A stretch of DNA of 29,585 nucleotides from Deltaproteobacteria bacterium CG07_land_8_20_14_0_80_60_11 (GTDB lineage Bacteria > Desulfobacterota > Desulfobaccia > Desulfobaccales > 0-14-0-80-60-11): the NCBI GenBank assembly GCA_002779455.1, contig PEWM01000102.1:12685-42269 (forward strand), written 5' to 3'. Every line of letters starts with the position of its first letter. Positions within the stretch are counted from its first letter, which is position 1. Made by a program: the position numbers and the translations under genes. The notes below the pieces were generated by a model that worked only from the letters and a program-made list of their open reading frames with translations, was not told where the DNA came from and made no database searches. Of this stretch, positions 5,271-28,806 are shown piece after piece.

Positions 5271-6701
5271 ATGCTCGATAGCAGTCATAGCCCGCCAGTT
5301 CCGGGGGAGTCCGCCCCGCCCCGCATCCTCCAGAAGTTTGCCTACCTGCTCAGCGCCCTTTGGGTCCGGGAGGCTTTGCAAGCCGTTTTCCTCATCTATC
5401 TGGCCCGGGTCAGTTCCACCACTTACGGGGAGTTTATCCTGGCCCTGGGTTTGGGGAGCATCCTCCTGTTGGTGGCGGAATTTGGCCTCAACCTGCCCCT
5501 GGTGTCCCTCCTGGCCCAAAAGGACGGGGAGCCGGACGCCGCCCTGACCCAGGTGTCCCTCCTCAAGGGGACCTTGCTGATCCTGGCCCTCATGGGGGTG
5601 TTGGGCTTCATGGAGTGGCAGGACTACGCCCCGTCCCTCAAACACGTCATGTTTATGCTCTGCGCCGGGTTGGGACTGGAGGCCCTGTCCAACTCTTTTT
5701 TTGTGGCCTTGCAGGTCCAGGGCCGCCAGGACCTCCAGGGCAAGATCAAAGCCCTGGCGGCCGGGATAGGCTTCGGCTATGGCCTCATCGCCCTGGCCCT
5801 GGGAGCCGCCCCCCTGGTGGTGGCCGCCTTCAAGCTCATCGAGAGTTTGATCAACCTGGGAGGCAGCTTTATCCTGGTGCGCTCCCGGGGCCGCTTCCGG
5901 TTCAAGTGGCCCTCCCTGGGACGGCTGGGTTCCACCCTGAAGCTGAGCCTGGTGTTTGGCCTCATCGAAGTCTCGGCCGTCATCTACAACAAGGCCAACC
6001 TCTTTTTCCTCCAGAAGTACGCCGGGGTCCAAGGAGTGGCTCAGTACAGCGTTACCTGGCAGACGGTAGACGGCATCTCCGTGCTGGTCTCCAACCTGCT
6101 CCTGCAGAGCATCCTGTTCCCGATCTTCGTCCAACTCTGGGAGGTGGACCGCGGGAGGGTCTCCCAACTGGCCCAGAACACCGCCCGCTGGCTGCTGGCC
6201 GCCGCCATGGCGGTCATGTTTCTGCTGTTCATCGAGAGCGACCGCATCATCACCCTAGTTTACGGCCCCAATTACCCGGAAGCCATCTGGCTGCAAAAGC
6301 TCCTGGTGGTGACCGTGGTCTTTGCCTTTATGCACAACCTGGCGGCGTTTCTCATGATCAGTATGCGGCTCCAGCGGTTGCTCCTGCTTTTTTACCTGGG
6401 CGGACTGGCCTTCAACCTGGTCTGGTGCGCCCTGGTCATTCCCCGGGCGCCCCTCCTGGGGGCGGCCCTGGCCATAGTGCTCACCAAGGGCGGGGTGGCC
6501 CTCCTGACCGTGTCTTTCTGCCAGCGGCGTCTGGGGCTCATGCGCCGGCGCCCCCTGCTCCAGTTGGGCCTGACCGTCCTTTTAGGCGCCCTGCTTTATC
6601 TGATGGGGCACGGTCGCCTGCCGCGGGAAGCGACCGAAGCCCTGGCCCTGGCCCCCACCTTCCTCCTGGCGTGGCGGTGGTGGCGAAAGAGATGCGATTA
6701 A
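5271..6701 (+). CDS. Wzx/MOP-superfamily oligosaccharide flippase, ~476 aa
   Basis: Many TM segments; IYLAR..STTYGEF, AEFGLN, GVAQYSV, ITLVYGPNYPEA, LLGAALA. Start moved from the ORF-track 4974 to ATG 5271 because the upstream part is low-complexity. Confidence 0.85.
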   Translation: MLDSSHSPPVPGESAPPRILQKFAYLLSALWVREALQAVFLIYLARVSSTTYGEFILALGLGSILLLVAEFGLNLPLVSLLAQKDGEPDAALTQVSLLKGTLLILALMGVLGFMEWQDYAPSLKHVMFMLCAGLGLEALSNSFFVALQVQGRQDLQGKIKALAAGIGFGYGLIALALGAAPLVVAAFKLIESLINLGGSFILVRSRGRFRFKWPSLGRLGSTLKLSLVFGLIEVSAVIYNKANLFFLQKYAGVQGVAQYSVTWQTVDGISVLVSNLLLQSILFPIFVQLWEVDRGRVSQLAQNTARWLLAAAMAVMFLLFIESDRIITLVYGPNYPEAIWLQKLLVVTVVFAFMHNLAAFLMISMRLQRLLLLFYLGGLAFNLVWCALVIPRAPLLGAALAIVLTKGGVALLTVSFCQRRLGLMRRRPLLQLGLTVLLGALLYLMGHGRLPREATEALALAPTFLLAWRWWRKRCD

Positions 6702-6837
6702 CGGGCCAGATGGAATATTCCGATCCCGGTTGATTGACGGAGGCATACAAGCAAGGGGGCATTTTGAAAGAGGATGATAAGCCCCACATTTAAAATCACC
6801 AATTGGTCAAAAATCTGTTTTTTTCGTCCACAAATTA

Positions 6838-27086: not shown

Positions 27087-28806
27087 AACCGTGGAGCACC
27101 AGGGAGGGTGGGCCAGGGACCTCTGGCCCGAAATAATGGTGGCCCTGATTTCCGGGGCCGTCTTCGTTTTGGCGCACTTCCAGGCCCTGGCCAATCCTTT
27201 GGTCATTAATGATGACGTCCGCCAGCAGATTTACTGGATGCAGCAATGGCAGGACCCGGCATTATTCCGGGGCGACTTCCTTACCGGCTATGCAAGGGCC
27301 TACGTCCCCTGGGGCGTAAAGGGCCTCTACTGGGTGGCCTCCTGGTGGGTGTCCCCCCTGGCCTTTTCCAAGTTCCTCCCCGGGTTCCTGTTCGTCTTCC
27401 TGGGCATTTGCCTCTTCAGGATCGGGACCCGCCTGGCAGACCGCCGTCTGGGGTGGATGATGGTAGCCGTCTTCTGGCTGATGCCCTTCTTTCTGGACAA
27501 CCTGTCCGGGGGTCTGTCCCGGTCCTTCGCCGCCCCCCTCCTGGCCCTCTTCTGGCTGGGCTGGCAGTCCCGGCGACCCTGGGTCATGGGCGGGGCGCTC
27601 CTGCTCCAGGCCCTGTTCATCCCTTACATTTTCATGGTGGCGGCCCTGGCGGCGCTGCTGGCCTGGCTGCTGGCGCGCCTGGGCCGGGACCGCCCGCCGC
27701 CCTTCCCGGCTCAGGCCGCCCACTTCTTGCTTCTGGGCCTGGGAGCCGTGTTGGTAGGTGCGATGAACCTCCAGTTCAGCGCCGGCGGCTACGGACCCCT
27801 GGTGAGCGCCCAGGAGATGGTCAATCACCCCGAGTTTTACGCCCATGGCCGTTACCAATTCCTGCCGGAACCCTCGCTCCTGTGGGAACTCATCCGCCCC
27901 TGGGAATTCATCCTCCCGTTTCGGGAGTGGGGGCCGGTGGCCGGCGGCCTGGCCGGCGCGGGTCTGCTGGCCCTGGGGGTGGCCGGACTCCGGCGCCTGG
28001 ACTGGCCCACCTGGCGGCAAACGCTCAAACCCGCCGGGTACCTGGGATTGGCCTCCCTGGCGCTTTATTTCCTGGCCCGGCTCTTCCTGTTGAAGTTATT
28101 CGTCCCCGACCGTTATCTCCTGTACACCGTGAACCTCTTTTATACCCTGGTGCTGGCCCTGGGGGTGCAGACGGCGCTCCGGGTTTCGCTCTGGCCCCGA
28201 TATTTGGCGATCCTGGCCCTGGTGGCGGCAGCATCCCTGGGCGCCTGGCGCCTCGAGGGAGTCGGGCTCAAAGATTACTCGGCCTACCGCGCCGTCTATG
28301 CCGCCCTGGCCGAAACGGACCAGGATGCCCTCATCGCCGGCCACCCCAACCTGATGGACACCATCCCCACCTTCGCTCAACGCCGGGCCTTTGCCACCTA
28401 TGAACTGGCCCACCCCTGGAGCCGGGGTTACTGGGCCAAACTGCAGCCCCGTCTGGCGGATCTTTTCCGGGCCTACTACGCCGCCGACCCCCAGGAGGTG
28501 GTGGCCTTCTGTCGGAAGTACGGCATCGCCTGGCTCATCGTCGATGACCGTCATTTCACCCCGGCCTTCTTGAAGGGCGGGTTCTGGCTCTTTCCCTATG
28601 ACCGGCCGCACCTTCAGGGCGCCTCCCCGGGTCTGGCCGAACGGATTTATTGCCCGTTTTTCGCCCCGTTTGATGAGCAGATCCAGCATCTTACGGCCGG
28701 GAGGGCATATTTTGCCTTACTTTCCGACCCCAGCTTCCGGTCTCGGGCCGTGGATCAGCATGTGCGCCTGATCGATATGCGCCCCTGGTTGACCCCAAAG
28801 CCCTAA
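27070..28806 (+). CDS. Large polytopic membrane protein, putative GT-C-fold glycosyltransferase with C-terminal soluble domain, 578 aa
   Basis: TM1 followed by INDDVRQQIYWM..W.DPALF..DF, GG.SRSFAAP, FVPDRY, then a soluble C-terminal region. Start is TTG 27070 or GTG 27091. Confidence 0.55.
   Translation: MKNLSETVEHQGGWARDLWPEIMVALISGAVFVLAHFQALANPLVINDDVRQQIYWMQQWQDPALFRGDFLTGYARAYVPWGVKGLYWVASWWVSPLAFSKFLPGFLFVFLGICLFRIGTRLADRRLGWMMVAVFWLMPFFLDNLSGGLSRSFAAPLLALFWLGWQSRRPWVMGGALLLQALFIPYIFMVAALAALLAWLLARLGRDRPPPFPAQAAHFLLLGLGAVLVGAMNLQFSAGGYGPLVSAQEMVNHPEFYAHGRYQFLPEPSLLWELIRPWEFILPFREWGPVAGGLAGAGLLALGVAGLRRLDWPTWRQTLKPAGYLGLASLALYFLARLFLLKLFVPDRYLLYTVNLFYTLVLALGVQTALRVSLWPRYLAILALVAAASLGAWRLEGVGLKDYSAYRAVYAALAETDQDALIAGHPNLMDTIPTFAQRRAFATYELAHPWSRGYWAKLQPRLADLFRAYYAADPQEVVAFCRKYGIAWLIVDDRHFTPAFLKGGFWLFPYDRPHLQGASPGLAERIYCPFFAPFDEQIQHLTAGRAYFALLSDPSFRSRAVDQHVRLIDMRPWLTPKP

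Follow-up and report, generated by a model that had tools for sequence, protein, structure and literature searches.

The window analysed here is a 29,585-nucleotide stretch from the metagenome-assembled genome (MAG) of an uncultured Desulfobaccales relative of sulfate reducers, Deltaproteobacteria bacterium CG07_land_8_20_14_0_80_60_11 (G000; 2.4 Mb, 73% complete), and corresponds to the right-hand 29.6 kb of a 42-kb contig (G000:C62:12685-42269). A single locus of several operons spans approximately positions 123-28806. Its most likely function is to synthesise a glycosylated sphingolipid and to deliver this lipid to the outer membrane or the cell surface; normal lipopolysaccharide (LPS) would be made alongside it. 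Gene classes were assigned by Pfam and NCBIfam scans of all long open reading frames (ORFs) in the window; these bore out the classes, and their positions, given in an earlier sequence-only reading of this DNA, which had proposed a complete assembly line for a decorated glycosphingolipid. The genes that carry the argument form two halves, a glycosyltransferase block and an operon that begins with spt, encoding an alpha-oxoamine synthase (AOS):

4974-6701, plus strand: Wzx/MOP-family flippase (Polysacc_synt, E 1.3e-13, from residue 118; about 11 transmembrane (TM) segments; true start probably near 5300); core
7626-8834, plus strand: GT21-family (UGCG/HpnI-like) integral-membrane glycosyltransferase (PF13506); core
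8916-9983, plus strand: Glyco_trans_1_3 (GT1_3; MJ1255/VC2487 family), a soluble GT-B enzyme (PF13528, E 2e-69; TIGR00661, 145 bits); core
10110-11330, minus strand: GT4a glycosyltransferase (Glycos_transf_1, E 1e-36; start fixed by orthologs of about 400 residues), last gene of its unit; core
11327-12514, minus strand: GT4b glycosyltransferase (Glycos_transf_1, Glyco_transf_4), with 4-bp overlaps on both sides; core
12511-13788, minus strand: radical SAM/SPASM(twitch) enzyme (Radical_SAM, SPASM), tailoring; core
13930-15138, plus strand: Zn-dependent medium-chain dehydrogenase, threonine/polyol dehydrogenase group (ADH_N, ADH_zinc_N); core
15135-16172, plus strand: CE4-fold enzyme by predicted fold (polysaccharide deacetylase/ArnD-like; start probably ATG 15156); core
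20320-21618, plus strand: Spt-type AOS, first gene of a seven-gene operon
21645-22820, plus strand: MacB/DevC/LolC-type ABC permease (MacB_PCD and FtsX; four TM segments and a periplasmic domain)
22813-23520, plus strand: ABC ATPase of the LolD/MacB/DevA group (ABC_tran; LolD 224 bits, DevA family 174 bits)
23517-24998, plus strand: TolC-like outer-membrane factor (OEP, E 3.5e-24, two repeats)
24970-25938, plus strand: HlyD-type periplasmic adaptor (HlyD_D23, HlyD_3; weak match to the DevB family)
25947-27086, plus strand: bCerS-family N-acyltransferase (GNAT, 378 residues), by homology to a Roseomonas positional cerS
27070-28806, plus strand: membrane glycosyltransferase of an unnamed family with a predicted GT-C fold, last gene of the spt operon

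The radical SAM, GT4b and GT4a genes form a minus-strand unit with 4-bp overlaps, divergent from the pair of Zn-dehydrogenase and CE4 genes; the GT21-like and GT1_3 genes form a further unit. In the plus-strand spt operon (spt, MacB, ABC, OEP, HlyD, GNAT and 27070-28806) neighbouring genes overlap or are separated by 8-27 bp, and a 512-bp AT-rich region with no Rfam match lies upstream of it.

Whether the two halves belong together was examined by synteny, using tblastn of the window proteins on the loci of relatives. The core set (Wzx, GT21-like, GT1_3, GT4a, GT4b, radical SAM, Zn-dehydrogenase and CE4) is found next to the spt operon in the genus of the window and also in genome G022. G020 has the core block abutting spt, with bCerS on a separate contig. 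The block as a whole has moved in G035 and G036, where it follows bCerS instead of preceding spt; in G028 the GT21-like gene is on the opposite strand. A Desulfovibrionales MAG (G045) has the entire arrangement contiguous over about 30 kb, at 45-68% identity. Within the sister family an spt ortholog occurs only in G028, G035 and G036, and the same three genomes alone have bCerS and a GT21-like ortholog. Wzx stays with the core in all relatives examined. The radical SAM gene ranks high in conservation within the core, with 62-75% identity in Desulfovibrionales and the other Desulfobaccales family; the best PDB match of its product, a weak one, is anaerobic sulfatase maturase. Because the linkage persists through rearrangement, in two Desulfobaccales families and in Desulfovibrionales, the halves are linked, for the core set, and are not chance neighbours. 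The sequence-only reading had allowed that they might be unrelated, or that the glycosyltransferase block might prove to be unlinked from spt in relatives; neither is the case for the core. The GT2 synthase, Wzy_C, a nine-TM protein and the set of carbamoyltransferase, SxtJ-like, methyltransferase and SGNH genes occur in some lineages only.

That no lipid A genes lie in the window, as the sequence-only reading pointed out, is true of its ORFs, but LpxC was found in four close relatives, so that the lineage makes lipid A. The lipid would therefore accompany LPS, and replacement of LPS was rejected on the same ground.

Ceramide genes and the GT21-like enzyme

The product of 20320-21618 has the pyridoxal-phosphate-dependent AOS fold (Aminotran_1_2, E 2e-47), and its Schiff-base lysine motif, G-T-F-S-K, aligns with that of Roseomonas Spt. 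Its best NCBIfam model is Spt (CFB type) with 431 bits; a BioF/Kbl-related model reaches 352 bits and the BioF model 339. The best PDB relative is Sphingobacterium multivorum Spt (334 bits; next class, 261 bits). A quick maximum-likelihood tree places the window AOS in a 100%-supported clade of pump-associated AOS genes, nested in a larger group of AOS genes that adjoin GNAT homologs; Roseomonas Spt is sister to that group (SH-aLRT (approximate likelihood ratio test) support of 90), with E. coli Kbl and BioF outside. G000 also encodes a 39% identical AOS paralog, which groups with E. coli BioF. By sequence, the window enzyme is an Spt-type AOS, for which the use of serine is predicted.

The window GNAT has no PDB or NCBIfam match. 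A tblastn search against plasmids found full-length homologs on Roseomonas megaplasmids, and one of these, L118:14004-15155 on the Roseomonas marmotae plasmid NZ_CP061095.1, served as the bCerS reference. The surrounding region encodes an acyl carrier protein, spt, a diacylglycerol-kinase-like protein, a CDP-alcohol phosphatidyltransferase, a metallophosphoesterase, two LptF/G paralogs, cerS, two nucleotidyltransferases, a fatty acyl-AMP ligase and an NAD-epimerase-family reductase, matching the gene roles of CC_1152-CC_1165 in Caulobacter (PMC11324152). The Roseomonas gene was taken as cerS because it lies between the LptF/G paralogs and the nucleotidyltransferases, like CC_1154. The window protein is 34% identical to it over 379/379 residues (E 1e-65), and this end-to-end homology to a positional cerS settles its family membership: it is a true bCerS-family member, with N-acylation of 3-ketosphinganine as the predicted reaction. 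The earlier spt-like and bcerS-like assignments thus hold. RefSeq labels the Roseomonas gene 'dATP pyrophosphohydrolase', a probable misannotation common to several Roseomonas records.

The GNAT family comprises approximately 7,200 representatives at 50% identity. We examined the neighbourhoods of its members in 80 loci from many phyla, scanning the loci with a 9-sequence alignment (a 38-sequence alignment was too diverse). An AOS gene adjoins the GNAT homolog in 41 of the 80, among them loci from Ignavibacteriota, Bacteroidota, Rhodothermota, Zixibacteria, Acidobacteriota and Verrucomicrobiota. One protein of the family, P0325 (780 residues), is a natural fusion of AOS and bCerS-family domains, and another, P0244 (784 residues), has two bCerS-family domains in tandem. 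Many relatives have a second bCerS-family paralog (27-37% identity; for example G035:C1:28622-29647, G204:C91:1379-2470 and G003:C2:824057-825067). In G035 and G036 this paralog is encoded upstream of spt, on the other strand; in G204 it adjoins the GT21-like gene, and in G003 it is approximately 9 kb from a CerR-like gene. Among cultured Desulfovibrionales, Megalodesulfovibrio paquesii has a bCerS homolog with 40% identity.

The enzyme proposed to transfer the first sugar to ceramide, on the strength of its sequence relationships, is the product of 7626-8834. It passes Pfam Glyco_transf_21 (PF13506) with 32.6 bits against a gathering cut-off of 21.7, and its best sequence match in the PDB is 'Ceramide glucosyltransferase' (26qf, E 3.4e-11), the eukaryotic UGCG, which is in the same Pfam family. 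The two proteins are similar in length (402 and 394 residues), share an N-terminal TM anchor and are colinear both in the N-terminal catalytic region (46-161 on 47-162) and in a C-terminal W-R...Y-R tail (352-393 on 351-392). The catalytic aspartate motif, F-C-D-S, aligns on I-C-D-S of 26qf, and D143, D232/D233 and R273 are invariant across 16 homologs. Between these regions phmmer gives no alignment, and the similarity to UGCG amounts to only about 46 bits.

Of 201 genomes sampled evenly from the phylum, 12 (from six genera) carry the GT21-like gene, 67 a bCerS-family gene and 40 squalene-hopene cyclase. All 12 carriers of the GT21-like gene are bCerS-positive, a count to be read with the caution that the surveyed genomes are related and thus not independent samples, and six of the 12 have a cyclase. 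The co-occurrence with spt and bCerS that the sequence-only reading had called for across genomes is therefore found. Homologs of the GT1_3 protein (30-32% identity) are encoded directly upstream of Spt-bCerS in L083, L094 and L100, loci of Rhodothermota and of one unclassified MAG; members of this family may themselves act as ceramide glycosyltransferases.

The MacB-type pump, a predicted periplasmic arm and accessory genes

All four parts of a MacAB-TolC kind of pump are encoded between spt and bcerS, as overlapping or abutting genes. Among the 80 loci, this four-gene insertion is found only in Desulfobaccales, Desulfovibrionales and unclassified 'deltaproteobacterial' MAGs. G120 has GT21, MacB and ABC genes in that order, and its pump ATPase forms an in-frame fusion with a GT4 domain of the GT4a type (L121:13094-15130; 678 residues); three genomes of another family have the order OEP-HlyD-GT21. 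The adjacency of GT21 and pump genes and the ATPase-GT4 fusion tie the pump to a glycolipid rather than to drug efflux, and we infer that its cargo is the glycolipid of the locus. Downstream of the GT21 and pump genes, G120 also has an HldE-like bifunctional kinase/nucleotidyltransferase gene (PfkB and cytidylyltransferase-like; L121:15149-16609) and a glucokinase gene, which hint that an activated sugar, heptose or another, serves as donor there.

The closest known analogue of the pump is the DevBCA-HgdD exporter of Anabaena, which exports heterocyst glycolipids (PMC6161253). Both systems have a separate ATPase, a MacB-type permease, an HlyD-type adaptor and a TolC-like channel, beside glycolipid synthesis genes (PMC6161253, PMC8277102). 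Unlike in Anabaena, the channel gene is in the same operon and the presumed cargo is a sphingolipid instead of a polyketide-derived glycolipid; the window proteins all score below the DevA and DevB family cut-offs.

The sphingolipid locus of Caulobacter (spt, acpR, aasR, cerR, cerS/bCerS and LptF2/G2; Sgt1/Sgt2) shares with the window an Spt-type AOS, a homologous bCerS and the clustering of synthesis, head-group and transport genes (PMC11324152). It differs in having AcpR, AasR and CerR, which the window locus lacks, and in having LptF/G paralogs where the window has a MacB-type tripartite pump, placed between spt and bcerS. The head group would be built here by GT21, GT1_3, GT4 and GT-C enzymes, not by Sgt1/2 or phosphoglycerate genes. 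The LptF2/G2 paralogs, which move sphingolipids in Caulobacter, are the sole tested system, and other machines are expected in other taxa (bioRxiv 10.64898/2026.04.12.717747).

The spt operon ends with 27070-28806, which is in a family of about 390 proteins, none of them named. Pfam at E values up to 10 gave nothing for its product, nor for those of 15135-16172 and 18303-19808. Its AlphaFold model (pLDDT 80, predicted TM-score 0.83) retrieves GT-C enzymes in all of the top 33 Foldseek rows (E down to 7.6e-9, TM-score about 0.45-0.5), including STT3, PglB, AglB, DPY19, AftA, AftD, ArnT, ALG9/12 and PMT. N47-D48-D49 is invariant after TM1, and the model alone places this motif in the first extracytoplasmic loop. 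According to the model the protein has a GT-C fold, and a polyprenyl-phosphate sugar donor is predicted. A homolog follows bCerS in Desulfovibrionales as well.

The product of 15135-16172 is, by its model, of the CE4 deacetylase fold (AlphaFold2 pLDDT 80; top Foldseek matches CE4 deacetylases and ArnD, E 4e-8). A GT2 protein upstream of spt, 16115-16939, has NCBIfam matches to AglJ, PpgS, dolichyl-phosphate hexose transferase and ArnC, and such a gene is found upstream of spt in Desulfovibrionales too. The ArnC-like GT2, the CE4 fold and the GT-C fold together point to an arm resembling ArnC/ArnD/ArnT within one lipid-modification locus. It differs from the Arn system in that there is no sequence-level orthology to Arn proteins and that the presumed acceptor is a (glyco)ceramide, not lipid A. 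The GT2 match and the predicted GT-C fold support the periplasmic polyprenol-phosphate-sugar arm of the sequence-only reading. Its label 'GT-C-like' is borne out by fold for 27070-28806 only; for 18303-19808 it is a weak lead, and 17143-18420 is Wzy_C. The genes outside the core and the spt operon are:

123-1985, minus strand: NodU/CmcH-type carbamoyltransferase (Carbam_trans_N, E 1.7e-93; Carbam_trans_C, E 2.7e-76); accessory
2233-2652, minus strand: SxtJ-like small two-TM protein (PF19588, E 8.8e-6; two hydrophobic segments), carbamoyltransferase partner; accessory
2903-3538, plus strand: SAM-dependent O-methyltransferase (Methyltransf_3, E 9e-20); accessory
3611-4771, minus strand: membrane-anchored SGNH/GDSL esterase or acyltransferase (Lipase_GDSL_2, E 3e-12; N-terminal TM segment); accessory
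16115-16939, minus strand: GT2 polyprenyl-phosphate sugar synthase-like protein (ArnC/AglJ/PpgS-like; Glycos_transf_2, E 1e-20)
17143-18420, plus strand: Wzy_C (O-antigen ligase/polymerase family) membrane protein (PF04932, E 6e-11); accessory
18303-19808, plus strand: nine-TM membrane protein, possibly GT-C-like (start probably about 18444); accessory

The carbamoyltransferase gene is beside the core only in the window's genus and G022, and the SxtJ-like gene travels with it. Carbamoylation genes are thus present, as the sequence-only reading had it, but they and the O-methyltransferase and SGNH genes lie at 123-4771, to the left of the start it gave to the locus (5271). Wzy_C and the nine-TM protein form a unit. 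For the latter, the nearest named atlas clusters are Glucos_trans_II and PMT_2, which we treat as a lead only; its orthologs have 443-485 residues.

The first gene of the locus is that of the carbamoyltransferase, and its last is followed by a convergent gene for a class III adenylate/guanylate cyclase (28884-29585), which is truncated by the end of the contig; an 80% identical ortholog of the cyclase follows the GT-C gene in another Desulfobaccales MAG (L038). The 12.7 kb upstream of the window carry housekeeping genes, the last of them NAD synthase. Between Wzx and the GT21-like gene is an AT-rich region (6702-7580) with two small ORFs, a sigma-70-like promoter at 7136-7164 (11/12) and a terminator-like hairpin at 7553-7572; the product of 7076-7531 has no match in any relative's locus and looks like an insertion private to G000. 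An Rfam scan of the whole window gave no match. A scan for promoters and terminators was near the expectation from shuffling and was not used as evidence. We rejected 19732-20166 as a gene: it has no matches (Pfam up to E 10), gives a Pro/Gly/Arg-rich translation and overlaps the end of 18303-19808.

Points of doubt and alternative products

Besides the relatedness of the surveyed genomes, several observations weigh against a glycosphingolipid. CerR is an NAD-dependent epimerase-family reductase. Two queries, Roseomonas CerR and the CerR-like protein of G120, found no CerR ortholog in the locus, in G000 or in its 100%-complete congeners G001 and G015. In these three genomes and in G022 they gave generic short-chain dehydrogenase/reductase matches only; G003 has a 37% match, which is unlinked. 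By analogy, the Zn-dehydrogenase may stand in for the absent CerR. Its best PDB match is L-threonine 3-dehydrogenase (78 bits), and it is a candidate for reducing a 2-amino-3-keto lipid because this nearest relative pairs in E. coli with Kbl, an Spt homolog; in G020 the gene is directly upstream of spt. In G036 the Zn-dehydrogenase and the CE4 enzyme are encoded in one 756-residue ORF (L020:1990-4260, C20), either a fusion or a read-through, and such a fusion fits sugar tailoring as well as ceramide reduction. The AOS, from a divergent clade, scores 431 bits against a curated Spt equivalog cut-off of 640 (NF047600), a score that does not establish serine as the substrate. Finally, G120 and G186, from one genus, have the GT21-like and pump genes but no clear Spt, the best AOS being only 31% identical. 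G120 may still make ceramide, since its bCerS homolog is followed by a CerR-like gene. To call the assembly line complete was therefore too strong, given the lack of a CerR ortholog, the accessory status of the tailoring genes, Wzy_C and the second membrane protein, and a genus without clear Spt. That reading as a whole is partly supported: its gene calls, the linkage, the co-occurrence and the tie between pump and glycosyltransferases stand.

The alternative that survives best, although we consider it rather unlikely, has a glycoglycerolipid, or another non-sphingoid glycolipid, as the joint product of the GT21-like enzyme and its partner glycosyltransferases and as the cargo of the MacB pump; the ceramide genes would be co-located only through a shared outer-membrane remodelling programme. 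The characterised bacterial GT21 enzymes, Pgt of Agrobacterium and Mesorhizobium, glycosylate diacylglycerol to give glycosyl-diacylglycerols (PMC8231724). The G120 genus, with GT21-like and MacB/ABC genes in the absence of clear Spt, would also suit this explanation. So would the observation that, outside Desulfobaccales, the GT21-like gene is bound most tightly to the pump and not to spt. It fits poorly with the presence of a bCerS-family gene in 12/12 GT21-like-positive genomes, with the GT21-like gene abutting a bCerS paralog in G204 and with a pump that sits inside one operon between spt and bcerS; and G120 itself, with its CerR-like gene, may be a ceramide producer.

A second possibility, to which we attach a low probability, concerns the base. 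The product of the AOS and GNAT would be an N-acyl amino lipid of a non-canonical kind, for instance with an alanine-derived 1-deoxy base or one of the sulfonolipid type. Its sugars would come mainly from the GT-C enzyme in the periplasm, and the left glycosyltransferase block would assemble the donor glycan without acting directly on the lipid. The GT-C gene is indeed the glycosyltransferase gene most tightly bound to spt and bcerS, the AOS falls short of the curated Spt cut-off, and cysteate acyltransferase is among its PDB relatives (221 bits). In the Black Sea, 1-deoxy- and sulfono-ceramides have been connected with Desulfobacterota (PMC11334938), which counts for this alternative; the supplements of that paper have no Desulfobaccales rows. 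Yet the AOS scores 70-100 bits higher with Spt models and structures than with any other AOS class, the conserved core includes a GT21 relative of ceramide glucosyltransferase, and there is no priming transferase for a glycan on undecaprenyl diphosphate.

Slightly less probable still, and largely refuted, is the view that an ordinary Wzx/Wzy surface-polysaccharide locus merely adjoins a ceramide operon. O-antigen and exopolysaccharide loci typically contain Wzx, Wzy_C, GT4 and GT2 genes together with tailoring genes of the carbamoyl, methyl and acyl kinds, and the spt operon has its own AT-rich upstream region of 512 bp. The genes that are typical of polysaccharide loci, Wzy_C and the tailoring set, are however the non-conserved ones, Wzy_C not being retained with the core, whereas the linkage of the core survives rearrangement in two families and two orders and is mirrored in shared presence and absence within the sister family. 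The window ORFs that were scanned include no Wzz, no Wza/Wzc and no priming phosphoglycosyltransferase of the WbaP or WecA type, so that the priming, chain-length and export genes of an undecaprenyl-diphosphate pathway are missing from the locus; because it has no priming enzyme, undecaprenyl diphosphate is unlikely to carry the growing glycan.

HpnI, HpnK and HpnJ make bacteriohopanetetrol glucosamine and cyclitol ether, and the trio of glycosyltransferase, deacetylase and radical SAM genes in the window mirrors them. HpnI is the best NCBIfam match of 7626-8834, which aligns with the model over its full length, and G000 has squalene-hopene cyclase; a hopanoid side-chain pathway is nonetheless refuted by distribution and hardly credible, as the protein scores 77 bits against a cut-off of 310 (TIGR03472), the true HpnI (355 bits, above the cut-off) is at G000:C64:1157-2284, six of the 12 GT21-like carriers lack a cyclase, and the cyclase-positive G025 and G026 lack the GT21-like gene. 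The score, and a distribution that tracks bCerS and not the cyclase, rule out an HpnI function for 7626-8834 and dispose of the hopanoid acceptor that the sequence-only reading had considered. The absence of a cyclase gene noted there is correct for the window; the genome has one or two, the matches G000:C216:7750-8700 and G000:C115:3084-4034 being on separate contigs from HpnI, and the source organism probably also makes glycosylated hopanoids.

Proposed pathway and its significance

For the favoured product, a glycosylated sphingolipid, we infer both the acceptor lipid and the order of steps. Ceramide would be made at the cytoplasmic face, where the Spt-type AOS and bCerS would give (3-keto)ceramide and the Zn-dehydrogenase may reduce the 3-keto group. 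The GT21 enzyme would add the first sugar to the C1 hydroxyl, and the three soluble GT-B enzymes would extend the glycan. One N-acetyl sugar may be de-acetylated, either on the lipid or on undecaprenyl phosphate (compare ArnC/ArnD). Wzx would then flip the glycolipid, to which the GT-C enzyme would transfer, on the periplasmic side, a sugar borne by polyprenol phosphate, much as ArnT modifies lipid A. From the outer leaflet of the inner membrane the MacB pump would pick up the product and expel it via the TolC-like channel, in the manner of DevBCA-HgdD. Carbamoylation, methylation, SGNH acyl chemistry and Wzy_C would be lineage-specific decorations.

A more far-reaching proposal, which we put forward tentatively and think somewhat more apt to fail than to hold, is that Desulfobaccales and some Desulfovibrionales make a true glycosylceramide by means of a bacterial relative of the eukaryotic enzyme UGCG and deliver it to the surface by a dedicated MacB pump. 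The pump would be a third, non-homologous solution to sphingolipid transport, beside LptF2G2 of Caulobacter and the MmpL protein proposed for Myxococcus; a threonine-dehydrogenase-like Zn enzyme would replace CerR, and there would be an ArnT-like periplasmic GT-C step. We found no publication describing such an arrangement.

The MacB-type pump encoded between spt and bcerS is a candidate sphingolipid export machine, and a UGCG-like GT21 gene linked to bacterial ceramide genes bears on the origin of glucosylceramide synthesis. Two missing activities emerge from the locus as well: ketoreduction that does not depend on CerR, and a GT-C step that acts on a sphingolipid in the periplasm. Environmental sphingolipids have been proposed to come from anaerobic sulfate reducers, and the locus would help to assign lipid biomarkers to them.

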